From the NCBI RefSeq assembly GCF_963921235.1, contig NC_086107.1, positions 113,834,001-113,898,000 of the forward strand: a DNA stretch of 64,000 bases. Direction: 5' to 3'. Under the pieces are notes generated by a model. The model was given only the letters and a program-made list of their open reading frames with translations. It searched no databases and had not been told where the DNA came from. Below, piece after piece: positions 17,959 through 54,111 of this stretch (its first letter is position 1; each line of letters opens with the position of its first letter). Made by a program: the position numbers and the translations under genes. The DNA is from Mobula hypostoma (lineage: Eukaryota).

Positions 17959-18003
<45 letters not shown>

Positions 18004-20530: not shown

Positions 20531-20535
20531 CACTA

Positions 20536-22504: not shown

Positions 22505-22990
22505 ATGGCCGGGCCGGAGGGTGCTTGGAAACACGGCTGCCTGCCGAGTTGCTTCGCCTCCGGGGACGAGCTGGAGATGCGACGAAGGAGCAAAGGGATC
22601 GACCAGATGCTGGCGAGGGAGCGACCGCACATGAGGAGGATGGTGAAGATTCTCCTGCTGGGAGCGGGCGAGAGTGGGAAGAGCACCTTCCTGAAGCAGA
22701 TGCGGATCATCCACGGGAAGGAATTCGACAGAAACACCCTAGAAGAATTCCGGGATATAATTTACGGGAATATCGTCAGCGGGATGCGGGTCCTGGTGGA
22801 CGCGAGGGAGAAGCTGGGGCTTCCTTGGGAGAACAGCGGGAATGAGAAACACGGGCTCTTCCTGGCAGCTTTCGAGAGCAGTAGCATTGGAGTGGAGGGA
22901 CGTTTCCAAAGCGTTCTCCCGGCCGTCAGAGCCCTCTGGAATGATGGAAGTATCAAAGAGGCCTATAGGAGGAGATCGGAGTTCCAGCTG
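22505..22990 (+). CDS. GNA12: G-protein alpha subunit, G12/13 family (GNA12-like), coding exon 1 (aa 1-162)
   Basis: Good Kozak context gcgATGg. KILLLGAGESGKSTFLKQMRIIHG P-loop; helical domain ending RRSEFQL, then donor GTAGGT at 22991 (phase 0). The symbol means GNA12-like; strict orthology is uncertain. Confidence 0.95.
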
Positions 22991-24200
22991 GTAGGTAATT
23001 CAATGCAAAGCGAAGGAGCAGTTGGTCAAAGGGAGATGTCACCCTCAACTCCCGTTTGTGTGAAGACACGGGAGCAGAATCGGGCCATTCGGCCCGTCCA
23101 GTCTGCTCCGCCTTCCATTTTGGCTGATTTATTATCCCTCTCAAATCCGTTCTTCTGCCCTCACCCCATAACCTTAATCGCCCTGGCCAATCAAGAACCT
23201 ATCAATCTCTGCTTTAAATGTACTCAGTAAATTGGCCTCTGCAGCCATCTGTGGCGATGAACTCCACAGATTCACTACCCACTAGCTAAAGAAATTCCAT
23301 CCTCACCTGATCTGAAGGAACGTCTTTCTAGTCTGAAGCCATGCCTTCTACCCCTAGACTCCTCCTTTATAGGAGATATCCCCTCCACATCCACTCTATC
23401 CAGGTCTTTCAATGTTTGGTATGTTCCTATGAGACCTCCCTCCCCCACCCAGCTCCAGCAAGTGAAGAGTGGAGATGTCCCGGTCAAGGGCGGGAAAGGC
23501 TGGGTTCGCCAAGGTGAAGCTGAAGTGCTGGAGACCTTGGAATCGAGGGTCAAGGTCGCAGCACAAAGGTGAGGGGCACTTTGGACTGAGTTAAGGGAAG
23601 TTCCTTCAGTCCGAGGGTCGTGGAACTTTGGAATTCCTTCCCCAGGGAGATTGTGCACTCACTGGGAAGCCCTGAGGCTGAGGGTCCTGGGATGAGGCAG
23701 GGAATGGGGCTGAGGTGGAAGATCACATCCAAACTCATCAAAATGGTGCAAAAAGGTTTGAAAGGCTGAGTTCAATTTAAATGTATTGCCAAACTTCATA
23801 TATGTCACCATATTACTATCCTGAGATTCATTTTCTTGCAGGCATTCATAGTAGATCGATGACTCAATGAGATACCAGACACAACGCAAGCAGGCTTTTT
23901 CCACGGAGGTTCGGTGGGACTACAATGAGAGGTCATGGGTTAAGGGTGAAAGGTGAAAAGTTTAAAGGGAACATGAGGGGAAACCTCTTCACTCAGAGGG
24001 TCAAGAGAATGCAGAGCAATCTGCCAGTGCAGGGCAAACTCAATTTCAACGTTTAAGAGAAGTTTGGGTAGGTACATGGATGGGAGGGGTATGCAGGGCT
24101 ATGGTCCCGGTGCAGGTCGATGGGAGTAAGCACTTTAAATGTTTCAGCACACACTAGATGGGCCAAAGGGCCTGTTCTGTGCCGTACTTTTCAATGATTC

Positions 24201-24555
24201 TAGTCATAGTCATAGTCATACTTTATTGATCCCGGGGGAAATTGGTTTTTGTTACAGTTGCACCATAAATAATTAAATAGTAATAAAACCATAAATAGTT
24301 AAATAGTAATATGTAAATTATGCCAGGAAATAAGTCCAGGACCAGCCTATTGGCTCAGGGTGTCTGACCCTCCAAGGGAGGAGTTGTAAAGTTTGATGGC
24401 CACAGGCAGGAATGACTTCCTATGACGCTCTGTGTTGCATCTCGGTGGAATGAGTCTCTGGCTGAATGTACTCCTGTGCCCAACCAGTACATTATGTAGT
24501 GGATGGGAGACATTGTCCAAGATGGCATGCAACTTGGACAGCATCCTCTTTTCAG
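24201..24555 (-). mobile_element. Third copy of the young Rex1/Babar-type LINE (short)
   Basis: Near-identical to 28790-29143. Confidence 0.88.
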
Positions 24556-26234
24556 TTTCTATGACAGCAAAGATGGACAAACAACCAATGTTGAAACATA
24601 GACAAACTATGCAAATACAAATCAAAAAGATTCCAGGAATGGAAGGGTTAACATACAAGGAGTATTGATACTGCGCAGCCTACTGCTGCTGTTACTTTCC
24701 GGTCTTCACTAACGCTCCCCTCCCCGAACCGGGGGTACCAGCACACGAAGCGGGTGATGGGTGTCTCTGTGCTGAACACTCTCTCATAGTTCTTCATACA
24801 AGAGGGAAGGGAGTATTTCCACGAGAGAGATGAATGCAAAGGGGAGCTTAAACACAAACTGCTGGAGAAGATCAGCTGGTCATGCAACTTCCTCGGAGTG
24901 GAACGGACATTCTGTGTTTCAGGTTGAGACCCTTCATCTGAATGAATTGTCAGCAGTGGCAGCTGGAACAGTGTCGGGAAGTGTATGGTCATGCACTATG
25001 CTAGAAGGGATAAAGGCATAAAGACTATTTCCTAAGCAGGAAGCAAATTCAGAAATCAGACCTGGGAGTCCTCATGTAGGATTTTCTAAAGGTTAATTTG
25101 CAAGTTGAGAAGTTGTAAGGAAGGCAAATGCGATGTTAGCATTCGTTTCAAGAGGACTGGAATGTGAATGCGAGAATGTAATGCTGAAGCTTTATAAGGC
25201 AGTGGTCAGACAGCATTCGGAGTATCGTCAGCAGTTTTGGGCCCCTTATCTACGAGAAATGTGCTGACATTGGAGAGGGTCCAGATGAGGTTCACGAGAA
25301 TGATTCTGGGAATGAAAGGGTTAACATTTGTGGAGTTTTTGTTGGCTTGTGGCTTGTACTCTCTGGGAGGGGGGATCTACTGAATATTGAAAAGCCTCCA
25401 CCAGTCCATCATGGCCGATTTATTATCCCTGTCAAGCCCATTCTCCTGCCTCCTCCCTGTGACCTCTGATGTCCTTATTAATAAGGAACCTATCAGCCTC
25501 TGCTTTAAATACACTCAATGACTCGACATCTGCGGTAACGAGTTCCACAGATTCACCACCCTCTGGCTTAAGAAATTCCTCCTCAACTCCATTCTAACTA
25601 GACATCCTCTATTCTGAGGCCGTGCCCTCTGGTCCCAGACTCCTCCACGTTTGGAGACATCCTCTCTATCTAACCTTTCAATATTCAGCAGGTTCAAAGA
25701 GATCCCTTCCCCATTCTTCTAAACTCCAGTGAGTGCAGGCCCAGGGTTATTAAACATCCTCATACGTTAACTCATTCATTCCCGGAATCATTTTTGCACA
25801 GTAGGGGAGTAAGGGTTATGGTGAAAAGACAGATAGGTGGAGATGAGTCCACGGTCAGAGCAGCCATGATCTTATTGGCGGAGCAGGCTGGATGGGCCAG
25901 ATGGCCGATTCCTGCTCCTACTTCTTATGTTATCTTATCTTATTCTCACGAACTTCTTCTGGACCTTCTCCCATCCCAGCACATCCCTTCTTACATCTGA
26001 AGCCCAAAACGGGTTAGTTGTGGGTTGTGGGCGTGCTATGTTGTGCCAGAACCAAGGCAACACTCTGACTACATTGGTCAGACACTCTGTCCAACACTCT
26101 GACTACGTTGGTCGTTGGCACAATGTTTGATGTTTCCATGCAGATGTGACAGATAAAGCTAATACACTGCCTGAGAGAACACTGATGGATGGAGGTGTAG
26201 CATCTGGACAGGAAAGGAGAGTTTATGACAGGTG

Positions 26235-26606
26235 GCTAAGGGCTGGGAGATGCCAGGACACGTGCAGAAGGGTTGCAAGGGGTGAGTGAAGGCTGGGAGA
26301 TGCCAGGACAGGTAGGGAGAGTTTGGGATGGATCAGTAAGGGTTGGGAGATACCAGGACACTTAGGGAGATGTTGGAATGGGTCAGTGAGGGTTGGGAGA
26401 TGCCAGGACACATAGGGAGAGGTTGGGACAGCGGAGTAAGTCCAGGAGATGCAAGAACACACAAGGAGGTGTTGGGATGGCTGAGTGAGTCTGGGGGATG
26501 CCAAACCACGCGGGGAGGAGTTGGGATGGTGCATAAGGTCTGGGAGATGCCAGTATGCATGGGTAGGGTTGCGATGGGTGGGCAATCACTGGGAGATGCC
26601 AGGACA
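26235..26606. repeat. Degenerate ~50-bp tandem repeat
   Basis: Recurring core ctgggagatgccaggaca. Confidence 0.7.
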
Positions 26607-28789
26607 ATTATACAATTAATAACATGGCTGATACAATCAGTGCACAAGGATTAAACCATTACTATCAGTGATGGGGACTACTGGTAAGAAATTAAGATGT
26701 TCTCTCAGTCCTGGTGAAAGCAGATTCAATGGGAACATGGCTGCACGACAGTTTCTCACAGCTGCAGTGACCCAAATTCGACCCGGACCTTGGGCGCTGT
26801 CTGTGTGGAGTTTGCATGTTCAATCTGCGGTGCTCCTCCGGATGCTCTAGTTTTCTCCCATCGCAAAGACGAGTGGTTTAACGGATCAGCTCGCTGCTAC
26901 GCACCACCGCCGGTGTGTGGGGTAAGTGACAGAATCCCAGAGTCGATGGGACAAGGGCAAAATAAAATGCAATTTAGTGTAGACGGTCGACATGGAGAGG
27001 GAGCTGAAAAGAAAAATGTGATTTGCTTCATTTGTCACACGTATGTCAAATCAAATAAACAGGAATTGTGCTGGGGGCTAGAGCTGCCATGCTTCCATGC
27101 CCACAACTCACAAGCCTCTTTGGAACATGTGAGGAAACGGTCATGGGGAGAATGTGCATCCTCCTACAGGCACCAGTGGGAACTGAACCATTGACTACTG
27201 GCACTCCAAAGCATTATGCCAGCCGTTAGGCTGCCGTGCCACCCCTAGGGCCAGTCTCTGACTTTATGCCTCTGTAACTCTATAAAGCTTGAAGGGACCT
27301 TGGACAGGTAGATGAAAAGAAACTGGTTGGACAGATGACTTGAAGTTCCAGTATCGGCATGATGGGCTGAAAGGTCACTTGTGTGTTGAATGATCCCAGG
27401 ACCTCACTGTGGGAATGACAACATGAACAGTGATTTTTTTTAAATACTGGAAATCTTTACCTCCCCCTCCCCCTTCCCTCTTCTCCCATTTCCCATTCTG
27501 GTTCCCCTCTCACCCCTTCTCTCTTCCTCCCCTGCCCATCATCTTCCCCTCCTTCTCTTTATTCCACGGTCTACTCTCTTCTCCTATCAGATTCCTTCTT
27601 CTTCAGCCCTTTACCTCTTCCTCCTATCACCCCCCCCCCATTTCATCTCCCCTCCCACACCCATCCACCTTCCCGCTCACCTGGTCTCACCTGTCACCTG
27701 TTAGGTCGTACTTCTCCTCTCTGACACCCATCCACCTTCCTGCTCACCTGGTCTCACCTGTCACCTGTTAGGTCGTACTTCTCCCCTCTCCTCACCTTAT
27801 TCTGGCTTCTTCCTCCCTTCCCATACCATCTTGATGAAGGGTCTCGGTCTGAAATGTCAACTGATTGTTCTCCCCCTCCGCAGATGCTGCCTGACCTGCT
27901 GAGTTCCTCCAAGCATTTTGTGTGTGGTCCCTTGCGTACCTCTTGCATTTTTCTAGCATTTTTGATGTATTAATTGTCCCTGGGCGAGTTGGGGGATGCA
28001 ATCGTACAGAGTCCAGCAGCCAGCAAAGCGTGAGCAAATCTGGGGCAGGTAAGCTGAAGCCTGGTTGGGGTGGGAAGTTGGAAAGAGAAAGATTATGGAG
28101 GGGTGAGGGAATGAAGAGCTCAGGGCCAAGGAATGACCAGCAAATCGAACACAGGCGATGCAAGTCAGGTCTATCTACACTAATTCTTTTTACCTATATT
28201 TTGCTGATATCTTTTTAAATCTTTTCTTATCCATGTGGTCTAACAACAGTATTTTAGATATTGTAGTTTGTGCCTGCCTCTGCCAGCACCTCTGGCAGTG
28301 TATTCCATAAACCCACCGCCCAGTTTGGGAAATACTTGTCCCTCAGACCCTTTTTAAATGCAAGAGATTCTGCAGACGCTGGATACCTTGAGCAACGCAC
28401 ATAAAATGCTGGGAGAACTCAACGAGTCAGGCAGCATCTATGGAGGGGAATAAACCTGGAGTCGGCACTTTGGGCTGAGACCCTTTATCAGGACAGGACA
28501 GAAAGGGAGAAGAATTCTCTCTACCATCCAGACATGCTCTCTTTTTGCTGCTGTGGAGGTGTAAGATCCTCAGGAACCATTGTTACCCTAGAACCATCAG
28601 TGTCCTGAACCAGCGTGGATAACTTCACTCTGCGCAGCAATGAACTGATCCCACAACCTATGGACTCCCTTTCAAGGACTCTACAACTCATGTTGTCAAT
28701 ACGCATTTTTTTAAATATTTGCCCAGTTTGACTTCTTTTGTATTTTGGTGGTTTGTCAGTTTTTGTGTGTAGTTTTTCACTGATTCCAT

Positions 28790-29685
28790 TAGTCATAGTC
28801 ATAGTCATACTTTATTGATCCCGGGGGAAATTGGTTTTCGTTACAGTTGCACCATAAATAATAAATAGTAATAAAATCGTAAATAGTTAAATAGTAATAT
28901 GTAAATTATGCCAGGAAATAAGTCCAGGACCAGCCTATTTGCTCAGGGTGTCTGACCCTCCAAGGGAGGAGTTGTAAAGTTTGATGGCCACAGGCAGGAA
29001 TGACTTCCTATGACGCTCTGTGCTGCATCTCGGTGGAATGAGTCTCTGGCTGAATGTACTCCTGTGCCCATCCAGTACATTATGTAGTGGATGGGAAACA
29101 TTGTCCAAGATGGCATGCAACTTGGACAGCATCCTCTTTTCAGACACCACCGTGAGAGAGTCCAGTTCCATTCCCACAACATCACTGGCCTTACGAATGA
29201 GTTTGTTGATTCTGCTGGTGTCTGCTACCCTCAGCCTGCTGCCCCAGCACACAACAGCAAACATGATAGCACTGGCCACCACAGACTCGTAGAACATCCT
29301 CAGCATCATCTGGCAGATGTTAAAGGACCTCAGTCTCCTCAGGAAATAGAGACGGTTCTGACCCTTCTTGTAGACAGCCTCAGTGTCCTTTGACCTGTCC
29401 AGTTTATTGTCAATTCGTATCCCCAGGTATTTGTAATCCTCCACCATGTCCACATTGACCCCCTGGATGGAAAGAGGGGTCACCGGTACCTTAGCTCTCC
29501 TCAGGTCTACCACCAGCTCCTTAGTCTTTTTCACATTAAGCTGCAGATAATTCTGCTCACACCATGTGACAAAGTTTCCTACCGTAGACCTGTACTCAGC
29601 CTCATCTCCCTTGCTGATGCAGAGTCATCAGAAAACTTCTGAAGATGACAAGACTCTGTGTAGTAGTTGAAGTCCGAGGTGTAAA
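28790..29685 (-). mobile_element. Young Rex1/Babar-type LINE 3' fragment
   Basis: Open 199-aa ORF KTKELVVDLRR..YKYLGIRIDNKL..RLYFLRRLRSF..SFLPVAIKLYN; tail reads (tagtca)3 on the + strand. Confidence 0.9.
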
Positions 29686-30654
29686 TGTATTTCTTTGTTC
29701 TACTGTGAATGCCTGCAAGAAAATGAATCTCAGGGCGACATATACGTACCCTGATACTAAAACTACTTTGAACTTTGAACTTACCTTAAAAGTATGTCCT
29801 CTTGTTTTAGATCCCCTCACCCTGGGAAACAGACTATGACTATTGGCACTGGTGATTTTATAAATGTCTCAACCTTCGCTTCCTTCACTGCAGAGAAAGC
29901 TGTTGCAGTCTATCCAGCCTCTCCTTGTAACTCAGACTTGCCTGTCCAGGCACCTTTGACTATTTTCTGCACCCTCTCTAGCTCAATCACATCTTTCAAT
30001 TTACCCGCACGTGTACAGAAGAAATATGGAAAGCTCGCGATCAGAGAACCACCAACAGATAGAGCCAGCTGTACTTACACATCAGGCCTGAGCAGCAAGT
30101 TTCCAAAATACTTCATGACAAGGGAAAGGAAAGCACACCAAGGATGAGCTAGGGATCACTAAGAAAAATGTCTGTGCCCCCGAACCCTGTGAACTTATGA
30201 ATGCATTATTTATTTAGAGACACAATGCGGAAAAGCCCCCTCCGGCCCTGTGAACCCCACTGTCCAGCAACCCCCTATTTAACCCCAGCCTAATCACAGG
30301 TCAATTTACAATGACCAATTAACCTACTAAGCAGTACGTCTTTAGACTGTGGGAGGAAACCAGAGCACCCGGAGGAAACCCACACGTTCCACAGGGAGGA
30401 CGTACAGGCGGGACACCGGGATTGAACCCTGAACTCTGACAGCCTGAGCTGTAACAGCGTCACTGCTATGCTGCCATAGCGCCCTTGGTGAGTTACTGGG
30501 CTGGAGGAGGTTACAGGGCTCTGAAGGGTTTGGGGGTTCAAAGGTCGAAGGTGAGGCTGAGGAGAGAATGAAACACTTGGAAGGGAGTTTTATTCTGTAG
30601 TTTTGACAGCTGGAGAGGCAGACATTAAAAGGAATAACTTCACAAAGAGGCAGA

Positions 30655-31272
30655 TCTTCTCCCTCCTGGCATGTATCCCTGCAAGCGACAGAAGTGCTAC
30701 GTCTGCCCGTTCACCTCCAATCAGGCCTCCTAACAGTCCTTCCAGGTGAGGCAACACTTCACCTACAAATCTGTTAGGGGTCATCTACTGTACCGATGCT
30801 CCCGATGAGGTCTCCTGTACATTGCTGAGACCCGACATAAATTGGGGAACTGCTTCATCAAGCATCTGCACTGCAACTACAAAAAGCTGAATTTCTCGGT
30901 AGCCAGCCATTTCAATTCCTATTCCCCACTCCAGCCTCTTAACCTCTTCTCCTCACCTGCCTATCACATCCTGCTGGTGCCCCTCCTCCTCCCCATTTCT
31001 CCCATGGCCCACTCTTCTCTCTTATCACATTCCTTCTTCTCCAGCCCTTTACCTTTCCCACCCACTTGGCTTTACCTATCACCCTTCAGTTATCCTCCTT
31101 CCCCTCCCCACACCATGTTACTCTGGCATCTTCCCTTCCTTTCTCAGTCCTGATGAAGGGTCTCGGCAACTGTTTATTCATTTCCGTAGATGCTGCCTGG
31201 CCTGCTGAGTTCCTCCAGCATTTTGTGTGGGTTGTTCTGTATTTCCAGCGTCTGCAGAATCTCCTGTGTTTA
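30655..31272 (+). mobile_element. Degraded Penelope-like fragment (GIY-YIG remnant plus pLTR)
   Basis: Collinear with 61790-62640 (cagtccttccaggtgaggcaacacttcacc...), frameshifted. Confidence 0.75.
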
Positions 31273-32689
31273 AGGTCTCCGAAATAGCATTTTGAAGATC
31301 GTTTCAGAGAAACGCTTCTGACAACGACTTCCCCATCACCCTAAGACCGCAACTCTGGACCCTGACTGCTGCAGGCTGGTTATACAGGCAGCTCTTTGAG
31401 GTGGTGTTCCAGTCAATATTCACACTCTCTTTCAATCACAGCTGCTTTGCCTGGTCTCAAGGCATTGGTGGGTTGGGGGCGTGGGAGGGGGCGGGAAGTC
31501 ATGCGTAGGCCTTAATTAATTTCTTTCACTTAATTACACTTCATGTGAATTTTTCAACCGCTCAAGGATGAATGGTTTAAGAATTCAAACTCGCTCTCAG
31601 TGCCAATTTCTCTGTGTCTGAGGAAGTTGTTAGTGGTTGGGGCCCAGATGAAATTTTGCTTTCAGATAATAACTACAGGCTGACTCAAACAATCAGGGGA
31701 ATAGTTTTGGTGTAAAGATTCAAGATTCAAAGATTCAGAATACATTTATTATCAAAGTATGCATGCAGTATGTATGGGAAGAGATTTGTCTTCCTGTAGA
31801 CAGCCCTGAAACAAAGAAAAACAGGGAACCCATTCAAAGAAAAAAAATCTAGCCACCAATGCACATTAAAAATCACACAAAAAGCAAAAAAAAGAGCAAA
31901 CACGCAGAATATAAAATATCAAATCAGGCACTCAATGAAACAGTCCAGGAATGTTCAGTTTCTGTTCAATCTCGCACTGTGTTGTTCGTTCACTGGAGGC
32001 TGCAGCCACTCCACACCGATCAAAATCGCACAAAATGGCAACTAAAAAGAGGGGACCTTTATTCTACAGCCGTTCCAGCACCATCCTCCACCAGCGACCA
32101 ACGAGAGGGAAAGAGAGAATGATCAGTCGAACGAAAGCACCTTCCTCTGGAAGCAGCGAGCAAGAGGGTGAGAGAGACAGTGAGAGAGAGAGAGAGAGAG
32201 AGGTGGGGGGCAGAGAGAGAGGGAAAGAGGAGGGAGAGAGAGAGCAATCAAACATAGGCACCCTCCTCCAGGAGCAGCAATTGAGAGTGAGTGAGAGACC
32301 GGTCACTCGCACCGCAGACGGCGCTGAACGCCCACTCGCCTTCCGCTCTCGTTCTTGTTGATTTCAATCTTCCTCACTGCTTTAATCGCTGGTAAACGGA
32401 GTCGATCGCGGGCTCACGCTCCGTCTCCAGGCTTCTTGGCCTCCAGGCCTCCCGCTTCACTCAAAACCTCACCGAACCCTTCAGAGACAGGAAAGCGCCA
32501 GCTCGCCCAAAACCACAGCATCAAACTGTAGTCCCTGGAGGGTGAGTAATTCAGCCGTGGAGACTGTGAGAGAGGAATAAGGTGTCATTATCCTGGAGGT
32601 GGTTACAGTACTGGGCTTGATGTCTGTTTTCAAAGGGCTGTGGAGGACGAGAGTGACGGAGAGGCTTGTGGTTGTTGCAGCTGCTTTCT

Positions 32690-34019: not shown

Positions 34020-34290
34020 ATGCACGGTAGCGTTGTGCATAGCAGAACACTTTACAGTGCCAGCGACCCGGGTTCAATTCCCGCTACTGCCTGTCAGGAG
34101 TTTGTACGTTCTCCCCATGACTACGTGGGTTTCCTCCGGGTGCTCTGGTTTCCTCCCACAGTCCAAAAACGTACCGGGTGGTCAGTTCATTGGTCAGTGT
34201 AAATTGTTCCGTAATTAGGCTGGGTTAAATCAGGGGATTGGTGGGTGGCGTGGGTCAAAGGACCGGAACAGACTACTCCGCACTGTGCAC
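34020..34290 (+). mobile_element. tRNA-derived SINE (V-SINE-like); related copies at ~4680-4980, 13585-13860, 30210-30480, 48385-48645
   Basis: B box ggttcaattcc followed by ggagtttgtacgttctcccc..gggtttcctccgggtgctctggtttcctcccacagtccaaa. Confidence 0.75.
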
Positions 34291-41919: not shown

Positions 41920-44830
41920 ACTGGACCTGGTGTTGGGTAACAAAACTGGCCAGATGACTTTCAGTGGGTGAGCAGTCAGGAAACAGTGACCACAACTCCT
42001 TAACATTTAGGATAGCTATAGAAAAGGATAGGTATGGTCCTTTCTGCAGAGTTTTAAATTGGAGTAGGGTAAATGATGAGCATATTAGACAGAAACTAAA
42101 AGGAGTTAATTGGGAACGCATTTTTTTTCTGACAATTCCACATCAGACGTGTGGAGGGCATTAAAAGATCAATTGCACAGAGTACAGGAAGGGTATGTTC
42201 ATGTTAGAAGGAAGGACAAGGATGGAAAGATAAGAGAACCTTGGTTGTCCAGACAGGGGATGAATTTAGTCAAGAAGAAAAAGGAAAAGTATGCAAAGCT
42301 TCGAAAGTCGGGATCAAACAAAGCACCTGAGGATTATAAAGAAGCCAGAAAAGAACTAAAGAAGGGAATTAGGAAAGCCGGGAGGAGTCATGAAAAATCC
42401 TTGGCCAGGAGGATTAAGGTGAATCCCAAGGCATTCTATGCATGCATCAAGAGCAGAAGGATAACTAGGGAGAGGGTAGGACCACTCAAAGATAAAGGCA
42501 AGAACATTTGGTTGGATGCAGACAATGTGAGTGAGATACTTAATGAGTTCTTTGCTTCAGTATTTCACAAAGAAAAGGACATGGAGGACTAGGAGATCAG
42601 TACGGAGTGTATAAGTATTAGGGTGTATAAGACCCCAGGGCCTGATGGGATTTACTCCAGGTTATCGAAGGAGGCAAGAGACAAGATTACTGGGGCATTG
42701 ACCAGTATCTTCATGTCCTCTCTAGGCACAGGTGAGGTCCTGGAGGACTGGCAAGTGGCTAATGTTGTACCTCTATTTAAGAAGGGAACGAAATCCTGGG
42801 AACTATAGACTGGTGAGTCTCCCGTCAGTTGTAGGGAAATTGCTGGATAAAATTCATAGGGACAGGATATATGAGCATTTGAAAACCCATGCTCTAATTA
42901 GGGAGAGGCAGCATGATTTTGTGTAAGGCAGGACATGTCTTACCAACTTGATTGAGTTTTTCAACAAGGTATCTAGAGAGACTGATGAGGGTAGGGCAGT
43001 GGATGTTGTCCACACGGATTTTAGTAAGGTGTTTGACAAAGTTCCTCATGGAGGCTAAACCAGAAGATTAAGATGCTCGGGATCCACGGTGAATTGGCTG
43101 TTTGGATTCAGAACTAGCTTGCGAATAGATAGATAGCTAGATAGATTGATACTTGATTGATCCCAAAGGAAATTACAGTGTCACGGTAGCATTACAAGTG
43201 CACAGATATACAAATATACAAATATCAGAAGAGAAGTAAGAAAGAATAAAAAATGACTTACCTCAAACAGCCCAACAGAAGGAGGTCATCACTTCCCCAG
43301 CTATAGGTTGACTTATTATTGAGCCTAATGGCCGAGGGTAAGAATGACCTCACATCGCACTCTTTGGAGCAGCACAGTTGTCTTAGTGTATTACTAAAAG
43401 TGTTCCTCTGTTCAGTCAAGGTGGCATGCAGAGGGTGAGAAATATTGTCCAGCATTGCCGGGGTTTTCCATAGTGTCCTTTGTTCTACCACAGCCTCCAG
43501 TGTGTCCAGTTTGACTCCTATAACAGAGCCAGCCTTTCTAATCGGTTTATTGAGCCTGTTGGCATCACCCTTGGTGATGCCATTGCGCCAGCATACCACC
43601 GCATAGAAGATTGTACCAGTGACAACAGACTGAAGGGACATGTGAAGGAGAGGCCTGCGTACTCCAAAGGCCTTCAGTCTCCTCAGGAAGTAGAGGCAAC
43701 TCTGGCCCTTCTTGTACCCAGCCTCTGGGTTGGTGTTCCACTCAAGTCTGTCATCCACATGCACCCCCAGGTACTTGTAGGTCCTCACAACGTCCACGTC
43801 CTCACCATCAATAGTAACAGGGAGCTGTACAGGCTGAGTCTTCCTGTAGTCCATCACCATCTCCTTCTGTATAGAAGACAGAAGGTGGTGGTTGAAGGGA
43901 CTTTGTATATAAATGACCTGAATGGAACTGTAGATGGGAGGGTTAGTAAGTTTGCGTATGATACCAAGATTGGTGGAGTTGTGGATAGTGTAGAAGACTG
44001 GTAAAGTGTGATATATAATCAGTTGCAGATATGGGCAGAGAAATGGCAAATGGAGTTTAACCTGGACAAGTGTGAGGTGTTGCACCTTGGTAGGGCAAAT
44101 GCAAGGAGACAGTGGAGCAGAGAGATCTTGGGATCCAAGTTCATGGCTCCTGGAAAGTGGCTACACAGGTTGATATGGTGGTTAAGAAGGCTTATGGAAT
44201 GCTTGCTTTATTAGTCGAGGCGTTGAGTTCAAAAGTCAAGAGGTTATGTTGCAACTTTATAAAACTCTGGTTAGGCCACATCTGGAGTGTTGTGTACAGT
44301 TCTGGTAACCCCACTGTAGGAAGGACATTGAGGCTTTGGAGAGGGTGCAGAAGAGGTTTACCAGGATGCTGTCTGGTTCAGAGGGCATGTGCTATCACGA
44401 GAGGCTGGATAAACTTGGGTTGTTTTCTCTGGAGTGTCGGAGGCTGAGATGAGATCTGATAGAAGTTTATAACATTATGAGAGGCATAGATAGAGTGGAC
44501 AGACTGTCTGTTTCCTAGGGTTGAAATGCCTAATACCAGAGGCCATGCATTGAAGAAGAGAAGGGGTAGGTTCAAAGGGGGATGTGAGGGGTAAGTTATT
44601 TTACTCAGAGTGGTGGATGCCTGGAATGTGCTGCCTGGTATGGTGGTAGAGACAAATGCATTGGAGACTTTTAAGAGACGTTTAGATAGGCACATGGATG
44701 TGAGGAAGATGGAGGGATATGGACATGGTGTAGGTAGGAGGGATTAGAGTTGGCTGTTTTTGATTTGCTTTTTAGCTGGGTCTGTACAACACTCTGGACC
44801 GAATGGCCTGTTCCTGTGCTGTACTCTTCT
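41920..44830 (+). mobile_element. Long degraded CR1 LINE (EN end, tether, RT) interrupted by another LINE
   Basis: SDHN, KxPGPDG, ANVVPLFKKG, NYRLVSL and KWQMEFNLDKCEVLH motifs across frameshifts; insertion at 43129-43870. Confidence 0.9.
43129..43870 (-). mobile_element. Rex1/Babar-type LINE 3' fragment nested in the CR1
   Basis: YKYLGVHVDDRL..LYFLRRLK..SFLPSAIRL; (atag)n tail on the + strand. Confidence 0.85.
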
Positions 44831-46772
44831 ATGGAAAACCTGCAAGAAGTAGTGAATACAGCCCAGTCCACCAGAGGGAAAACCCTCCCCTCCATTAAGC
44901 ACATCTTCAAATGTACAAGGAGCACTGCCATAGGAAAGCATTCTCCATCATCAAGGACCCCTTCCATCCAGGCCATGCTCCCTTCTCACTGCTGCCATCG
45001 GGAAGGAGGCACAGAAGCCTTAGGTTCCACACCACCAGGTTCAAGAGTTATTACCTCTCAACCATCCTGAACCAGCGCGGATAATTTCACTCGCCTCAAC
45101 ACCGAACTGATTCCTCAACCTATGGACTCGCTCTCAAAGGCTTTACAACTGATGTTCTCAGCATTATATATTTACTTACTTATTACAGCTTATTGTGATA
45201 CCTTCTTGCCTTTTGCACACTACTGTATTTGTCAATGTGGAGCGGAGAGCGAGTTTGCAAATCTGGCAGGAGCAAAGGATGTCGGGAATGGCGAGGGTGG
45301 GGTGCTGCGGGAGGGGTGTGGCACAGGTGGCAGAGAAGGAGTGCCGGGGTGGGGGGGGAGTGAAGTGGGTGCAGACACACCAGGCAAGGTCAATTGATTC
45401 CAAACAATCGGTTTATTGATCATCATAGAATGTCTCTCTGGTGCTTCCCGCTACCTCTCCCCTCCCTTCCCTTTTTTCCAATCATGATTCCCCTCTCCCT
45501 GTCCCATTCCCACTCTCTGTCCACAATAGAGACCCATATCAGGTTTATCATCACTCACATGTTATGAAATTGTCTTTTTGCCACAGCAGTACAATGCAAT
45601 ACATAAAATTACTACAGTACTGTGCAAAAGTCTTAGATACCCTTGCTGTATGTATGTACCTAAGACTTTTACACTGTACTGTATTTACATTGCTTGCCTT
45701 TGGTTGTTTGTCAATCTTTGTGTGTAGTTTTTCATCAATTCTGTTGTATTTCTCGGTTCTGCTTTCAATGCCTGCAAGAAAATGAATCTGAGGGTTGTAT
45801 ATGGTGAGATACTGAATGTTGACTTTGATAATAAATTCACTTTTGAACTTTGATGAAGGACTCTGCTAGGAGATGACAGTGGACCACAGGAGAAAGGGAA
45901 GGAGGAGGGGCACCAGAGAGAGGTGATAGGAAGATGAGGAGAAGAGAAAGGGTGAAATGGGAACCAGAAGGGGGAATATTAAAAAAGAGAAGGAGAGAAA
46001 TAACCGGAAGTTAGAAAAATCAATGTTGACATCAGTTTGGAGGTTATCCAGATGGAATGTGAGGTGTTGCTCCACCCAGGAGAATATGTGGCAAAGTTTC
46101 TCTGGTTAACAGCTGCCACTGTGATTCATTGTACTTGCAGTACTTGGAGCGATGCCTAAGCCTCTGGTTCTCAGTATCTGGGGCGAATCTATCTTCTCCA
46201 AAGTTTGAATTTCAAATAAAGGTTACACCTTTCCCAGGACACTGCCCGGATTCGAGAGCATGTGCCAAAGGAGAGGCTGAACAAACTTGTGTTGCTGTCT
46301 CTGGAGCAGCAGAGGCTGAGAGGAGACCTGATAGAGGTTTCCAAGGTCATGAAGAGCAGTGATAGATGGCCAGTGTCTTTACTCCAAGGTCAAACTAGGT
46401 GAGAGGGAGTAGGTTCAAAGGAGGTGTGTGAGGCAAGTTTTTTACGCAGAGGGCAGCGGATGCCTGGAATGTGCCGGGAGGGGTGGTAACGGAGAAAAAT
46501 ATGACAGAGGCATTTAACTCACACAAAATGCTGCTGGCAGCATCTATGGAGAGGAATAAATAGTCGACGTTTTGGCCTGAGACCATTCATCAGGATTTTC
46601 AGTATCTGCAGAAGCTCTCATCTTTATAGAGGCATTGAAGAGGCTCTGTACAGAGAATGGAGGGACATGAACGCTGTGTAGAGAGAAGGGTTTAGTTTAT
46701 TACTAGCTTAATTAGTTTAGCACAGCATTGTGGGCTGAATGGCCTGTTCCTGAGCTGTACTGTTCGATGTTC

Positions 46773-47425
46773 CACACTCAGCGGTTACTTTATAAGTACC
46801 TCCTGTACCTAACTGAGTGTATGTCCGTGACTTTCTGCTGCTGTGACCCGTCCACTTCAAGATTTGACGTGTTGTGCGTTCAGAGATGCTCGTCTGCACA
46901 CCACTGTCGTAACGTGTGATTATCTGAGTTACTGTCACCTTCCTGTCAGCTTGAACCAGTCTGGTCATTCTCCTCTGACCTCTCTCATGAACAAGGCGTT
47001 TTCACCCACAGAACTGCCCCTCACTGGGTGATTTGTTTTTGTTTCTCACACCATTCTCTGTAAACTCTAGAGCAGGAGTTGCCAACTCGGAGTCCACGGA
47101 CTCATCAGTTAACAGTAAGGCTCTATGGTAGAAAAAAGATTGGGAACCCCTCCTCTGGAGCTTGTTATGCGTGAAAATCCCAGGAGATCGGCAGTTTCTG
47201 AGATACTCAAACCACCCCATCTGGCACCAACAATAGCTCCACAGTGAAAGTCACTCAGATCACATTTCTTCCTCAGTTTAATGTTTGGTCCGAACAACAA
47301 CTGAACCTCTTGACCACATCTGCATGGTTTTATACATTGAGTTCCTGCCACGTGATTGGCTGATTAGATATTTGCATTAATGAGCAGGAATACGGGTGTA
47401 CCTAGTAAAGTGGCCACTGAGTGTA
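46773..47425 (-). mobile_element. Tc1 derivative (same family) containing an 80-bp hAT MITE
   Basis: Reverse complement of 32690-33245, with TIR-like ends cactcag... and ...ctgagtgta. Confidence 0.85.
47073..47152. mobile_element. 80-bp hAT (Charlie-like) MITE
   Basis: Imperfect TIRs caggagttgccaac / attgggaacccctc; 8-bp TSD ctctagag / ctctggag. Confidence 0.75.
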
Positions 47426-49295
47426 TATTTTGCCTTAAAAGTAATACATGCAGAAATCTGTTCTGCCAATTCAGTGCTTTGGTGGGTGGGATTAAAAAAT
47501 CCGACCCTATGGGCCGGTGAGTAACTAACCATTCCCAGCAGTGAGTATGAGAGGGCCTTCTCGCTCATGAGGGGAAAACAGGAAGGAGCCCATCTAATTG
47601 GCTCATGATAAAATCAGCTGCTGACTCCATGTTTGCCAAACCAGTGATTTTTTTTTCTAAGGAATGCTGCAAAAAATGCCTTGTTATTCCAGTCAGACAC
47701 TCAATTTATTTCTCGTCCAAACAAAAGCAAAATAAAATTAGTCAGACATTTCTGCTGCAATGGAGGCAGCCGTTACTGGCAGTGAATCCTATATGGTCAG
47801 ACTACAACTCCCAGGGTGCCTAGCAAGGTGGGTGACCATAACACCATAAGACATAGGAGCAGAATTAGGCCATTTGGCCCATCGAGTCTGCTCTGCCATT
47901 CCATCATGGCTGATTTATTATCCCTCTCAACCCCATTCTCCTGCCTTCTCCCTGTAACCTTTCAGGCCTTTTCTAAACAAGAGCCTTTTAACTTCCTCTT
48001 TAATTGTACCCACTGACTTAAATATACCCGGTGGCTTCATCTCCCCTAGAAAATGATCTAGGAAATGACTCCACCACCAGGCCATATTCTGCTCCCCTCC
48101 ACACCCCCCCCTTCAAAGGGATCTTTCCCTCGAGAATCTTTGATCCGCCCTTCCACACCAGCCCGCCACTGACCCCTTGCAGCCTCAGGAGATGTGACTC
48201 CAAAGCAGGGGACCTACGCTCAGTGCTCACAGGGCGGCACCACGACCCTTGATCAACCAAACGCCCACTGGGTAGTCGCTTTGAATCAGGATCATGTTTA
48301 TTGCCGCTGACATATGCCATGAAATTTGCAGCAGTACACCTGCAAGGCATAAAAAAATTACTTTAATTTACAAAAGAATTCGTGGGGCACCGCGGTAGCG
48401 TCACAGTTAGTGCACCGCTATTACAGCTCGGGGCGTCGGAGTTCAGAGCTCCATTTCATCAGCCTCTGTAAGCAAGTTTGTACGTTCCTTCCGATGAGTT
48501 TGTGTGGTGCCTCTGAGTGCTCCGGTTTCCTCCCGGTCAGTAGCTGGACTGGTCATTGTCAATTGTCCCGTGGTTAGGCTGGGGTCAGATCAGGGCTGCC
48601 TGGCTTGGCGGGAGGGCCCATTCCACGCTGTAACGCTAAATAAATAGTGCAAAAGTGAGTTAGTGTGACACACGCAAAACGCCAGAGGAACTCAGCAGGT
48701 CAGGCAGCGCCCAGGCAAAGGAATAAACAGTCAACAATTTGGGCTGAGACCCCTCATGGTTTCATGGACCATTCAGAAATCTGATGGTGGAGGAGAAGAA
48801 GCTGTTCTTGAAACATTGAGTGTGGATCTTCAGGCTCCTGTACCTCCTCCCCATAGAAATGAGAAGAGAGCACGTCCCGGGTGGTGAGGGTCCTCAGTGA
48901 CGGAATCTGCCTTCTTCAGGCTCCACCTCTTGAAGATATCCTGGATGGAAATGGACAGTTGACGTTTCACTTAGACATTACATCTTCTGACCTGAAACAA
49001 GTCTGTGGGGAGGCTTGTGTCCATGATGGCACCAACGGAATCCACAACCCTCGACAACCTCTTTCAGTCCCATGCACTGGAGCCCCCAGACCAGACGGCG
49101 ATGCAGCCAGTCAGAATCCTCTCTGTGGTACATCAGTGACATACCAAAACTCCTCAAACTCCCAGTGAAGCATTGCTTCTTCTTCATTGGAACACCTTTG
49201 ATTTGTGGAACACCTACCCAAGGTATCTTAATTCCCAGTTCCCCTCCCTCTCTGGCCTCCAGCGCTGTTACAAGGAAGTCTTGTGTAACCTCAAG

Positions 49296-49672
49296 GTGGA
49301 ATATCTAACTAGATGGAATATCTAACTCGGTGGAATATCTAACTAGATGGAATATCTAACCAGATGGAATATCTAACTAGGTGGAATATCTAACTAGATG
49401 GAACATCTAGCTGGGTGAAATATTTAACTAGGTGGGATATTTAACTAGGTGGAATATTTAACAAGGTGGAATATCTAACTAGATGGAATATCTAACTAGG
49501 TGGAATATCTAACTAGATGGAACATCTAACTAGGTGGAATATCTAACTAGATGGAACATCTAACTAGGTGGGATATCTAACTAGATGGAACATCTAGCTG
49601 GGTGGGATATTTAACTAGGTGGGATATCTAACTAGGTGGGATATTTAACTAGGTGGGATATCTAACTAGGTG
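49296..49672. repeat. Minisatellite, 17 bp x ~22
   Basis: Unit tggaatatctaactag(a/g). Confidence 0.95.
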
Positions 49673-51732
49673 TGGTGCAGATGCATGTCTCCGTACTGAA
49701 GTTTCCAGTCTTAGATAACTTGCTCCTTCTTTATACTTAAGCAGAACGTGATTGCTGCCTTGTCCCATGTCCTTTTGGGATGGACTGCGCTTGGTAAACA
49801 CATTCGTTACACACACACACAAGCTGCTGCCGTTGTACTGAGTAGACACACTTCAATGCCTTCCCCGGCGTATTCTTATAAGGGGTTAGCTTTATGGTGC
49901 CTTTCCCGCCATACACAGGGAATATTCTATTTCTTTAGTAATGGGGATGTGTAAATGTGTATATGTTGTTTGTATTTAATGTAGATCCTTCTGTTTATTT
50001 TGTAACATGATTGTAATTACTTTGTGGGATGCATCATGTGTAGCCTTGAGTTAACTTTGTGGGTAATTAAAGACAGTACGTCCTGGTGCCTGATAAATGG
50101 GGTTCATCGCTCTCAGTGGGAAAGACAGATCAAGGGTACACACAAGATAAGAATAAGCTATTATTGTGTTTTCTGCCATATATCTTTTCATAAATATTGG
50201 CAGTTTTCTTTTCACTATTTTTTAAGTTTGATTTTTGACGCAGCTAATAAACGCCCTTGCACTAAAGTGCTAAGCGACTCCAGCCATTTTTCCTTTGGTC
50301 ATAACCCACATATCTAACATATTTCACCTGTCCATCCTTTTAACCTTCACCATGATCAACCTAACACTTCCCTCCCACACAAAATGTTTCTTTCATCCAT
50401 GTGCCTATCTAAATGTCTAAATGCCCCTAATATATCAGCCAAAGCCAACACCCCAGGTGTACACTCCAGAAACGTACTATAGAAACAATCTACCACGGAC
50501 ATCTTCTCCATTCACCATAAAAACATGTCCTCATTGGCACCCTGGGAAAAGCCCCTGGCTCTCCACTCGATTTGTGTCTCGTATAAATCGTACACACCTC
50601 TATATTTTCATTCTCCTTCGCTCCAAGGTGAAAGCCCCCAGCTCGCTCAGCCCTTCTTCAGAAGCCATGCTCCCTAACCCGGGTAACATGCAGACCAGGA
50701 ACACAAGAGATGTCCTGTTGAAGGGCCTCAGCCCAAATCACTGAGGCCTAGTCTCCTCCTGCCTGACCTGTTGAGTTCATCCAGCAGTTTCTGTGTTATG
50801 TGTGTTTCACTGAATGTGTAGACCAGAGGTGGTCGGTCCCCTGTGAAATACTAGTGAACCAGCTATGGAAAATGGATCAGGCATGATGAAACTGTGGAGC
50901 AGACGCAATGGGCCAAATGTCCTAATTCTGCTCCTACATCTTATGGACTTATAAAATCCATTTTCCCTCTCAGCCCCAATCTCCTGCCGTCTCCTCGTAT
51001 CGCTTAACAAGAATCTATCAACCACTGCTGTAAATACACCCAGTGACTTGGCCTCCACAGCAGCCAGTTCCACAGACTCACCGCTCTCTTCTCCTCACCT
51101 CCCTTCTAAAAGGACGCCCCTCTATACTGAGGCTGCGTCCTCTGGTCCTAGACTCTCACACCATAGGAAACATCCTCTCCACATCCATTCCATCGAGGCC
51201 TTTCAATGCTCAGTAGGTTTCAATGAGATCCTCCCTCCCCCTTTCTTCTGAATTCCAGCGAATACAGGCCCAGAGCCATCAAGCGTTCCTCATATGACAA
51301 GCCTTTCAATCCTGGAATCATTTTCGTGAACCTCCTTTGAACCCTGTCCAATGTCAGCACATCCGTTCTCAGATAAGGGGCCCAAACTGCTCACAGTACT
51401 CCGAGTGAGGCCTCACCAGTGCTTTATAAAGCCTCAACATTACATCCTTGCTCTTATATTCTAGTCCAGTTGAAATGAATGCTAACATCCCTTCCCCCTT
51501 CCTTCTCAGTCCTTAAGCAGGGTCTCGGCCTGAAACATCGACTGTTTATGCATTTCCATAGATTTTGCCTGACCTGTTGAGTTCCCCCAGCATTTTGAGT
51601 GTGCAAGACAGACTTTCCTCTGTATCTTGGTACCTTTGACATTGATAAGCCGATACAAAACCAAGCATCATCCCCACCCCCTCCTTCCCAGACCCCCCTC
51701 CTTCATTGCGTCTCCCTTTTTTTCCCTCACAG

Positions 51733-51783
51733 GCGGAATCGGTACAGTATTTCCTGGATAACTTGGATCGAATCGGCCAGCCG
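51733..51783 (+). CDS. GNA12: GNA12-like coding exon 2 (51 nt, AESVQYFLDNLDRIGQP)
   Basis: Long pyrimidine tract plus cAG, donor GTGAGT. 17 codons matching the GNA12 51-nt exon GESVKYFLDNLDRIGQL; phase 0/0. Intron 1 is 28,742 bp. Confidence 0.95.
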
Positions 51784-53541
51784 GTGAGTGTTGCTGCTTT
51801 TTTTCAAGTTTCCGCACTGGCGGTGCGTAAACGTGGTGTCGGTCGGACTAACCCACAGCTCAGCCGGGCAACATGTGGGGGTTGTTGTTCATCCTGGGTG
51901 ACCCAGAGAGTCAGGGCTGCAACAGTTGCCCTCAGCGGGCAAACAGGGCAACTCCCAGTGTGTCCCCGTGAAGGCAGAGACATAGAACATGGTACGTACA
52001 GAGAATGAGGCCTTTCAGACCATTGTGTCCATGCTGAGCATGACACCACATTAAACTAGTTCCCTTCTGCCTGTACGCGATCCGTATTCCTTCATTCGCC
52101 GCAGATTCATGTGTCTTTCTCAAAGCCTTTTAAACACCATGATTGTATCTCCTTCCACCCGTCTCACCAGAAGCCCGTTCCAGGCATCTCTGTTTAAAAA
52201 AAAAATTGCCCTGCACATCTCCTCTAAACTTTCTTCCTCTCACTTTAGAACATAAAATACGACAACCGAGTGCAGGCCCTTTGGCCTGCAATGTTGTTCT
52301 GACTATTTAAGATCAATCTGACTGTTCCTCTCCACACAGTCCTCCACCTTTAACTGCCCGACCTCTAACATCAGACATTTATATCTCTGGAAAAAAGTCT
52401 GGCTATCTCATTTACAGGGGTGATGGGCCTTTTTCAGAGTGTGCTCCCAAATTAACGATAATCTTCCAAAACAAGTCATGGTAATTTTGAACCAAGATTG
52501 TCATTGATTAATGAATTAGTAATAATAATTACAGATATTCTTCACAGAAAAAGGATGAATCCTGTTGCTTACTTACGTGTATTCATTATTTTTTCTTAAC
52601 AAAAGTATAGCCAATTGAAATAAAGGAAGCATCTTAATACCATTGATTTTTAAAAAGACAATTTAAAAATAGCATCATTTCTAAATAGTATGGTTATTAC
52701 AAACATTTACTATCCAAATACTACCGTATAGACCGGTCTGCGAGGATTTCAAAACGTATCATTTGCAGACAAATGGAAGATAGGTGGAGGGGCCGGTAGT
52801 TTTGAGGAAGGAGAGAGGCCACAGAAGGACTTAGACAGATTAGGAGAATGGACAAAGAAGTGGCAGATAGAATATCGTGTCAGGAATTATATGGTCAATC
52901 ACTTTGGTAGAAGAAATAAAAGCTCAGGCTATTTGCTCAGTACTTCTCTATGCATCACTTCAACCCCGCCTCCCTGATGTAAAGGGGGAATTCTGCTGCG
53001 TAAAGAGGCCTCAGATGCTGGAGAAACTCAGCTGGTTGGTCAGTATCTACAGAAAGAATAAACATTCAACATTATGAAGGTCTCGGCCAGAAATGTCACC
53101 TGTTTATTCCCCTTCATAGATGCTGCCCCACTCTCTGAGTTCCTCCGCCATTTTCTGTGCATTGCTTAAGATTTCCAGCATCTGCAGAATCTCGTGTGTC
53201 TCCTATCAGATTCTTTCTTCTTCAGTCCTTTACCTTTCCCACCTATCACCTCCCAGCTTCTACTTCACCACGCCCCTTAGCTCACACGTACACCTTCCCC
53301 CCTCACCTTTCACCTGCCAGTTTGTACTCCAGCTTCTCACCCCAAGCTTCTTATTCTAGGGTCTGTCCCTGCCCTTTCCAGTCCTGATAACGTGTCTCAG
53401 CCCAAAACGTCCGCTGTTTACTCCCCTCCATAGAAGCTGCCTGACCTGTTGAGTTCCTCCAGTGCGTGTTACTCCCTGTTTCGGGAAGGCCACCGTGTCC
53501 AGAGCTGATGCTAACCAAAAGCATGTCTCATTGTCTTGTAG

Positions 53542-54111
53542 AACTACCTCCCCAGCAAGCAGGACGTCCTGTTCGCCCGCAGGGCCACTAAAGGCATCGT
53601 GGAATACGACTTCCTCATCAAGGGGATCACCTTCCGGATGATGGATGTGGGTGGCCAGCGTTCCCAGAGGCAGAAGTGGTTCCTCTGTTTCGAGGGCATC
53701 ACCTCCATCCTCTTCATGGTGTCCTCCAGTGAGTTTGACCAGGTATTGCTGGAGGACGGGTGCACCAACCGCCTGGTTGAGTCCATGAACATCTTCGAGA
53801 CCATCGTCAACAACAAGCTCTTCACCCGCGTCTCCGTCATCCTCTTCCTGAACAAGACCGACCTGCTGGAGGCCAAGGTGAAGACGGTGAACATCGGCGA
53901 CTACTTCCCAGACTTTCGGGGACGGCCCCACCACCTCGGGGACGTCCAGCGCTACCTCCTCAATTGCTTCAGCGGCAAGCGGAGGGACTGTAGCCGGCCG
54001 CTCTTCCACCATTTCACCACCGCAGTCGACACCGAGAACATTCGCTTCGTCTTCCAGGCGGTCAGGGACACGGTGCTGCAGGAGAACCTCAATGACATCA
54101 TGCTGCAGTGA
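53542..54111 (+). CDS. GNA12: GNA12-like coding exon 3 (terminal, 189 aa plus TGA)
   Basis: ttgtcttgtAG acceptor. [14 protein letters not shown] (switch I), DVGGQR (G3), FLNKTD (G4), TTAVD (G5), C-terminus [10 protein letters not shown]. Intron 2 is 1,758 bp. Confidence 0.96.

Follow-up and report, generated by a model that had tools for sequence, protein, structure and literature searches.

A third G-alpha of the G12 class?

The G12 class among the alpha chains (G-alpha) of heterotrimeric G proteins, here GNA12 and GNA13, is described as two-membered in the abstract of a review (PMC8732267). A 64,000-bp stretch of the genome of the ray Mobula hypostoma (hereafter the window; contig C45:113834001-113898000, forward strand, window coordinate = contig coordinate minus 113834000) carries a G-alpha gene of this kind, which we call G12L, downstream of a gene for a CARMA protein. 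The locus raises the question of whether G12L is a third member of the class and, if so, where it came from. We find that it is very probably a third G12-class ohnologue, retained beside CARD10, and a sister paralogue of GNA12. The original prediction for this locus, an ohnologue from the early vertebrate genome duplications, is supported by the identity of the CARMA neighbour, by three parallel gene pairs in one genome, and by the position of G12L in gene trees.

An intact gene in three exons

As predicted, positions 22505-54111 of the forward strand encode an intact G-alpha of 368 aa in three coding exons (Table 1). The DNA read at the exon borders gives canonical splice sites, and the exons joined by their coordinates form 1107 nt with a single, terminal stop codon. 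The product matches letter for letter the database model P0457, named "guanine nucleotide-binding protein subunit alpha-12-like", and the junctions of the short second exon give exactly this model. Among stop-to-stop frames, the gene appears as two long G-alpha pieces, at 22385-23230 and at 53542-54111, plus a short piece at about 51.7 kb. The best protein matches of the window genes are ray and shark proteins.

Exon 1 contains the N-terminal Cys12 and Cys16, the P-loop, and the helical domain, while exon 3 contains switch I (RRATKGI), switch II (DVGGQR), NKTD, TTAVDT, and the C-terminal DIMLQ. In a profile search, exon 1 matched the Pfam G-alpha domain (PF00503) with E 3.5e-33 and exon 3 did so with E 3.6e-69, and the orthologue P0001 matched profile positions 2-333 of 333 (E 1.2e-117); a cluster look-up of P0001 returned nothing but generic G-alpha clusters. 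G-alpha proteins carry a P-loop, the Arg/Thr of switch I, the Gln of switch II, and NKxD and TxAxDT motifs, and all of these G boxes are intact in G12L (GAGESGKST at residue 53, RRATKGI at 192, DVGGQR at 214, NKTD at 283, and TTAVDT at 338). The solved structure closest to P0001 was 1zca, a G-alpha-i/12 (546 bits), followed by G-alpha-13 (484 bits), with the best Gq at 322 bits. Because of these scores and of its position inside the GNA12+GNA13 group (see below), G12L belongs to the G12 class, nearer to G-alpha-12/13 than to the Gq, Gi, or Gs classes.

The exon borders of G12L, after EFQL and before NYLP, are those of M. hypostoma's own GNA12 and GNA13. Residue 179, encoded by the last codon of exon 2 (51781-51783, CCG), is Pro in the window protein and Leu in five other G12L orthologues compared; the manta orthologue P0458 agrees with the window protein, and the aligned place in shark GNA13 is occupied by Pro.

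G12L as the probable sister clade of GNA12

Three maximum-likelihood (ML) trees were computed: one of 34 rows with a coral outgroup, one of 35 rows to which the ray's own GNA12 and GNA13 were added, and one of 43 rows with ten G12L and six chondrichthyan GNA12 sequences, including Callorhinchus. In all three, G12L is an elasmobranch-only clade (100/100; 10 rows in the largest tree) and sister to the jawed-vertebrate GNA12 clade, cartilaginous-fish GNA12 included, with GNA13 outside. Support for the union of G12L and GNA12 was 98/92 in the 34-row tree and 100/100 in the 35- and 43-row trees; GNA12 stood apart from G12L with 93/84, 93/80, and 96/85, respectively, and GNA13 formed a clade without G12L at 100/98 to 100/100. 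The GNA12 clade of the 43-row tree unites 6 cartilaginous-fish and 12 bony-vertebrate rows, without G12L. The original prediction had named three findings that would speak against it, namely nesting within GNA12, a CARD11 neighbour, and a genome lacking any other GNA12, and none of them was borne out: with chondrichthyan and bony-vertebrate GNA12 and GNA13 sampled, the ML trees put G12L outside, as sister to all jawed-vertebrate GNA12 (96/85), and the other two points are treated below.

Over its full length, the window protein is 95% identical to its Hemitrygon orthologue, 83-87% identical to four other elasmobranch orthologues, 69-71% identical to GNA12 (shark 71.0%, no different from bony vertebrates at 69.2-70.9%), and 60-62% identical to GNA13.

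Identity of the CARMA neighbour

The original prediction had G12L follow a same-strand CARMA gene at a distance of about 16.7 kb, and 16,736 bp indeed lie between the CARMA stop codon and the G12L ATG. The last exon of this CARMA gene (66 aa) is 100% identical to the proteins P0240 and P0241, named "CARD11-like", and 14/14 named matches of the exon are elasmobranch "CARD11-like" proteins, the 15th match being nameless. P0240 maps in 19 exon pieces to C45:113770734-113839765, with the CARD domain (Pfam E 9e-17 in P0240) in an exon at C45:113770791. The C-terminal part of the window gene is homologous to other CARMA proteins; a Pfam scan of P0240 left its PDZ, SH3, and GUK parts without a match.

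P0240 was searched against a 50%-identity representative library, giving 575 matches at E <= 0.001, of which the best 150 of 575 were used; a first CARMA tree was built from these representatives, and names were looked up for 20. The CARMA tree discussed here (31 rows, 1013 columns, LG+C20+F+G4, amphioxus root), in which cyclostomes and amphioxus are represented by one lamprey, one hagfish, and one amphioxus row, places the window gene and seven elasmobranch rows as sister to six bony-vertebrate CARD10 rows (100/100). These six comprise lungfish, pigeon, and axolotl CARD10, a reedfish "CARD10-like" protein, one unnamed row, and a coelacanth record named CARD11. The CARD10+CARD11 clade received 97/98, and the ray's other CARMA genes fall into CARD11 (C36, 100/99), CARD14 (C68, 100/100), and CARD9 (C67, 100/100). 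In an approximately unbiased (AU) test, uniting the window clade with CARD11 was rejected (delta log likelihood (lnL) 43.5, p-AU 0.000285). Because of the fully supported grouping with bony-vertebrate CARD10 and of this rejection, the window gene is identified by its sequence as a CARD10 orthologue, despite the database name "CARD11-like"; the original prediction had made its inference conditional on this identity.

The names in the databases differ from the tree in two respects: the coelacanth record P0259, named CARD11, groups in the CARD10 clade, and the elasmobranch "CARD11-like" proteins P0240-P0253 are CARD10 orthologues in the tree. According to a 2016 preprint on CARD-coiled-coil proteins, the ancestor of jawed vertebrates is where three paralogues of CARMA arose, in agreement with the CARMA tree presented here.

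Three CARMA-G12 pairs in one genome

When the last G12L exon was searched against the whole assembly (3.48 Gb, 200 contigs), 31 matches were found, three of them full-length: the window exon on C45 (100%), C36:115918949 (79%), and C68:40227060 (68%). The remaining 28 were partial, with 33-62% identity, and lay on other contigs. On C36 the exon reads as that of GNA12, and on C68 as that of GNA13; the latter is 89-98% identical to 114 proteins among the best 120 listed, the other six (54-75%) being five models of excessive length (416-733 aa) plus a row of 334 aa. The database name "alpha-12-like" could be taken to mean that G12L is nothing but the ray's orthologue of GNA12 or GNA13, or a copy of either that the assembly has duplicated. 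This reading is already refuted and retains virtually no chance of being correct: the separate genes on C36 and C68, at just the last-exon identities given above, group with named GNA12 and GNA13, and the same three-way split into GNA12, GNA13, and G12L recurs in other species' annotations.

The CARMA last exon has exactly two further copies in the genome at E <= 0.001, namely at C36:115749300, 68 kb upstream of GNA12, and at C68:40102502, 47 kb upstream of GNA13, each on the same strand as its neighbour. The separate GNA12 and GNA13 that the original prediction had suggested looking for are hence both present, downstream of CARD11 and CARD14, respectively. The last exons of the CARMA genes end at C45:113839765, C36:115749515, and C68:40102696, and the matches to the first G12 coding exon start at C45:113856505, C36:115817877, and C68:40150002, all on the + strand. 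The pairs CARD10-G12L (C45), CARD11-GNA12 (C36), and CARD14-GNA13 (C68) thus share the same order and strand. Searches with the G12L exons gave no G12-type match on C67, the contig of the fourth CARD-coiled-coil gene, CARD9. The shape ((G12L,GNA12),GNA13) of the G-alpha trees parallels that of the CARMA tree, where the CARD10+CARD11 clade leaves out CARD14.

A structural difference accompanies this pattern. The exon 1 query matched one open frame on C68 and two pieces 38 kb apart on C36; an intron at NVIK/GMKV divides the first coding exon of the ray's own GNA12 and is missing from G12L and the own GNA13, and at this site the reading frame of G12L continues unbroken. According to the consulted part of Lokits et al. 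2018 (PMC5896119), three coding exons are the ancestral state, and the extra intron is typical of jawed-vertebrate GNA12.

The wider synteny, which had been proposed as a check, was followed with markers identified at the Pfam level only, and paralogues of Fringe, BORG, GAT, and Tweety genes were found on the pair contigs. Fringe has one gene each at 107.2 Mb on C36, at 34.5 Mb on C68, and at 84.2 Mb on C45, and all 4 GAT-domain matches are on C36, C45 (two), and C68; BORG/CEP matches occur on C68 and C45, plus other contigs, and Tweety genes on C36, C68, and C80. This distribution would fit the human map, with C36 corresponding to 7p22 (LFNG, TTYH3, GNA12, CARD11), C68 to 17q (RFNG, TTYH2, CDC42EP4, GGA3, CARD14, GNA13, AMZ2), and C45 to 22q13 (MFNG, CARD10, CDC42EP1, GGA1). 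In a weak test of these assignments, the 58-aa Fringe exon of C45 scored 68.7 bits against mouse Manic Fringe (2j0a), compared with 59.6 for C36 and 49.2 for C68.

Archaemetzincin was tried as a third synteny marker and dropped, as its sole genome match is on C68, with none on C45 or C36, making it uninformative for C45. The archaemetzincin-type exon (C68:40268737-40268883, +) lies 41 kb downstream of GNA13, and a python G-alpha-13 record, P0178, bears the name "archaemetzincin-2", probably a naming slip from the same adjacency. A BORG/CEP match and a Tweety gene also lie less than 90 kb apart at C80:19097737-19183592, where there is no CARMA or G12 match; we assume that this may be a fourth paralogous region, similar to human 19q13.4.

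Distribution among vertebrates

Cluster look-ups found G12L in 17 elasmobranch species (5 batoids and 12 sharks), with full-length orthologues of 364-369 aa alongside longer isoform models. A protein search with the last exon provided a broader sample: the best 120 of 4715 matches were taken and 111 rows kept for a tree, after eight fused or over-long rows (P0004, P0007, P0009, P0037, P0048, P0049, P0057, and P0058) and a coral row (P0008) had been dropped. In the resulting FastTree phylogeny, only five elasmobranch rows join the window protein (Shimodaira-Hasegawa-like support 100), and none of the 111 rows places a bony vertebrate in the G12L clade. The chimaera Callorhinchus is present in the GNA12 cluster and in none of the G12L clusters, which does not by itself prove absence. 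The original prediction held that the gene was lost in mammals; no mammal is in the clade, but this wording is too narrow, since the clade has no bony-vertebrate row at all within this sample.

Zebrafish is reported to carry a second GNA12 copy (Lokits et al., PMC5896119), which was weighed as a candidate G12L orthologue. The idea was dropped, as four cyprinid GNA12 sequences (three named "12-like" and one alpha-12) lie at a distance of 0.80-0.82 from the window protein, compared with 0.68-0.76 for other GNA12, and outside the clade.

Diagnostic residues and evolutionary rate

Across 44 columns diagnostic for GNA12 versus GNA13, 28 residues of the window protein are GNA12-type, 7 are GNA13-type, and 9 are neither. 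The gene had been described as a GNA12/GNA13 mosaic, and the mixed states are real; the mixture is nevertheless lopsided, and the GNA13-type states are scattered through the protein instead of forming blocks (14 runs vs. a shuffled mean of 12.2). An origin of the mosaic by recombination or gene conversion was dropped for this reason. The GNA13-type states are best read as putative ancestral states that GNA12 changed later. One proposed GNA13-type feature, the N-terminal Cys-x3-Cys, does not hold as such, since the ray's own GNA12 carries it too.

At ten sites invariant across both GNA12 and GNA13, a different residue is found in 6/6 G12L rows compared, and the replacements are conservative. 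Examples of these clade-specific changes are K211R and V213M just before DVGGQ, D230E past switch II, and a change of the C-terminal helix, K363N.

Measured as the sum of branch lengths from ray to catshark, the path is ~0.29-0.30 changes/site in G12L, ~0.05 in GNA12, and ~0.04 in GNA13, in line with the earlier impression that the protein is unusually diverged for its family. The rate of G12L is thus about six times that of GNA12 or GNA13, with all GTPase motifs intact. In the 35- and 43-row trees, the stem of G12L measures 0.31-0.33 and that of GNA12 0.05-0.07. Given the long stem and the long ray-catshark path, G12L has therefore diverged asymmetrically and keeps evolving about six times faster.

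Such a rate, together with the fact that bony vertebrates manage without G12L, would also be expected of a decaying or silent relic whose frame is open by chance or that has been newly inactivated. We consider this highly improbable in view of full-length frames in 17 shark and batoid species, with 83-95% identity of the compared orthologues to the window protein, and of five G boxes, a C-terminal tail, and splice sites that are all intact. The 10 conservative replacements common to all six G12L rows likewise fit selection, not drift.

Origin of G12L

In the scenario that we favour, the early genome duplications of vertebrates would have copied an ancestral same-strand pair, with the CARMA gene followed by a G12 gene, as one unit, giving rise to CARD11-GNA12, CARD14-GNA13, and CARD10-G12L. 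Elasmobranchs would then have kept all three pairs, while bony vertebrates would have kept CARD10 and lost the adjoining G-alpha. The main support for an old origin of G12L comes from the CARD10 neighbour and the synteny, and the missing GNA12 intron points in the same direction as a soft character. The evidence for a duplication before the split of cartilaginous and bony vertebrates is decisive for CARD10; for the G-alpha itself, such a duplication is favoured by the sequences but not decisively.

Several observations weigh against this scenario. Forcing G12L into one clade with chondrichthyan GNA12 costs only 4.24 lnL (p-AU 0.093) and 3.34 lnL (p-AU 0.112), and the G-alpha alignment alone is not decisive against a cartilaginous-fish-specific GNA12 duplicate. 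The stem of G12L is long (0.33 vs. 0.05) and could draw the clade outwards. The G12 trees are without cyclostome (lamprey, hagfish) sequences, and the deep nodes of the CARMA tree are weak (85/71 and 89/83); both points limit what the trees can say about which duplication round came first. The same exon border positions also arise in lobe-finned-fish GNA13 (PMC5896119, Fig. 6 legend), and given such parallel border changes in the family, the GNA12 intron is a labile, soft character. On C45, 13-33 Mb separate the pair from the Fringe, BORG, and GAT markers, and because of this distance the markers support chromosome-scale paralogy only. Finally, the best 120 of 4715 matches do not prove that bony vertebrates and chimaeras lack G12L.

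The competitor that the AU tests do not reject is a GNA12 duplicate specific to cartilaginous fishes, copied alone or with CARD11, that evolved fast and was moved to the base of the GNA12 clade by long-branch attraction. The long stem, the 28/44 diagnostic states common to G12L and GNA12, and the "CARD11-like" name of the neighbour would all suit such a history. We nonetheless judge it decidedly unlikely. The neighbour is sister to bony-vertebrate CARD10 with full support, and its union with CARD11 is rejected; moreover, with only three CARMA last exons in the genome (E <= 0.001), a CARD11 copy on C45 would leave CARD10 missing. A lone GNA12 copy, for its part, would need to have come to lie behind CARD10 in the same orientation, reproducing the arrangement of the other two pairs. 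The absence of the GNA12 intron from G12L also speaks against this duplicate, as do the ML trees, which hold GNA12 apart from G12L with 93-96% bootstrap support.

A retained third ohnologue, our preferred reading, can be compared with the known members of the family. Like GNA12, G12L has the C-terminal DIMLQ, the same G boxes, and a location downstream of a same-strand CARMA gene, but this neighbour is CARD10 instead of CARD11, and the NVIK/GMKV intron of GNA12 is lacking. The FKMVDVGG region is changed, another segment now reads CFEG, and ENLKD has become ENLND, among the 10 such clade-specific replacements, and, unlike GNA12, G12L was found only in elasmobranchs (best 120 of 4715 matches and cluster look-ups). 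With GNA13 of the same genome it shares three coding exons, whose borders fall after EFQL and in front of (N)YLP/YIP; common to both are also NKTD in the G4 box and 7 of the 44 diagnostic residues. GNA13 differs in forming its own clade (100/100) and in its position on C68 beside CARD14 and an archaemetzincin-type gene. As a G-alpha that some vertebrate lineages kept and others lost, G12L resembles GNAI4, a copy from the two rounds of genome duplication (2R) kept only in lampreys, and GNAV, which was lost in tetrapods (Lokits et al. 2018, PMC5896119, consulted in part).

Predicted function

G12L would be a working gene for a third alpha subunit of the G12 class of heterotrimeric G proteins. 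By analogy with characterized family members, its N-terminal cysteines are probably palmitoylated, and the protein probably binds G-beta-gamma and G-protein-coupled receptors (GPCRs) and exchanges GDP for GTP. It probably also activates RhoGEFs with an RH domain and, through them, RhoA. A partly shifted specificity is suggested by the roughly six-fold rate and by the clade-specific changes that lie near switch II and within the C-terminal helix; such fixed changes, by switch II and in helix alpha-5, may affect its receptor or effector preference.

The adjacency itself invites speculation. Signalling by the G12 class may feed into CARMA-BCL10-MALT1 and NF-kB, as is known for CARMA3 downstream of GPCRs. 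The CARMA and G12 genes may have been a linked pair before the duplications that persisted with unchanged order and orientation in three regions, perhaps because the genes are co-regulated or part of one pathway. G12L could then be, instead of a redundant copy of GNA12, a third G12 subtype with its own receptor or effector specificity that acts with CARD10 in elasmobranchs; we regard this as an unlikely idea.

Other features of the window

The remaining features are mostly repeats and fragments of mobile elements (Table 1). At 58-60 kb, the GC skew is -0.61, which the array at 57875-59114 accounts for; the array is likewise the source of spurious Pro/Ser/Leu-rich frames of 460-477 aa on three frames. 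ALKBH8_N matches such as those in G12L intron 1 are typical of the tails of long interspersed nuclear elements, and the GIY-YIG frame downstream of G12L is possibly derived from a Penelope-like element.

Table 1. Coordinates of annotated features in the 64,000-bp window
Feature	Window positions	Strand	Details
CARD10 third-last coding exon	948-1067 (match limits)	+	P0240 residues 893-932; C45:113834948-113835067; 98% identity
CARD10 second-last coding exon	2259-2381 (match limits)	+	P0240 residues 932-972; C45:113836259-113836381; 95% identity
Tandem array, 47-bp	2754-2989		last CARD10 intron
Tandem array, 34/171-bp	3406-4027		last CARD10 intron
CARD10 last coding exon and stop	5567-5768	+	acceptor AG 5565-5566; TGA 5766-5768
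CARD10-G12L spacer	5769-22504		16,736 bp; tandem arrays and reverse-transcriptase fragment
Tandem array, 14/30-bp	10564-11117		spacer
Tandem array, (GT)n-type	11229-11477		spacer
RVT_1 fragment	12316-13095	+	spacer; Pfam match
Tandem array, 37-bp	18698-19140		spacer
G12L coding exon 1	22505-22990	+	162 aa; first ATG of open frame; donor CAGCTG/GTAGGT
G12L intron 1	22991-51732	+	28,742 bp; GT at 22991, AG before 51733; rich in retroelement fragments
ALKBH8_N-type open reading frames	28935-29624, 43258-44160	-	G12L intron 1; Pfam match
Tandem array, 17-bp	49294-49672		G12L intron 1
G12L coding exon 2	51733-51783	+	17 aa, AESVQYFLDNLDRIGQP; borders ACAG/GCG...CCG/GTGAGT
G12L intron 2	51784-53541	+	1,758 bp
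G12L coding exon 3	53542-54111	+	189 aa and stop; acceptor TTGTAG/AAC
C/T-rich tandem array	57875-59114		periods 114-227 bp, up to 93% matches
GIY-YIG nuclease-type open reading frame	61669-62214	+	downstream of G12L

A further G-alpha gene with a long open first exon (290-aa frame) was noted elsewhere in the assembly, at C2:157843754-158089104 on the minus strand (loci L004, L005, and L015). It shows 32% identity to G12L exon 1 and 39-52% to parts of the last exon, in pieces 245 kb apart; judging from its gene structure, it could be GNAZ-like.

Implications for the G12 class

G12L has already been annotated automatically, and its recognition as a third G12-class paralogue was not found in print; no description of such a paralogue came up in the literature searched. 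For the CARMA family, the result means that the elasmobranch genes called "CARD11-like" should be renamed, as they are CARD10. The adjacency of CARMA and G12 genes in three paralogous regions offers a clean marker for reconstructing the ancestral vertebrate karyotype. As a sister protein, G12L also lends itself to the question of which residues determine the specificity of G-alpha-12 as opposed to G-alpha-13. A conserved third G12 member in sharks and rays corrects the count of the class and would add one gene to the ancestral G-alpha set of jawed vertebrates.

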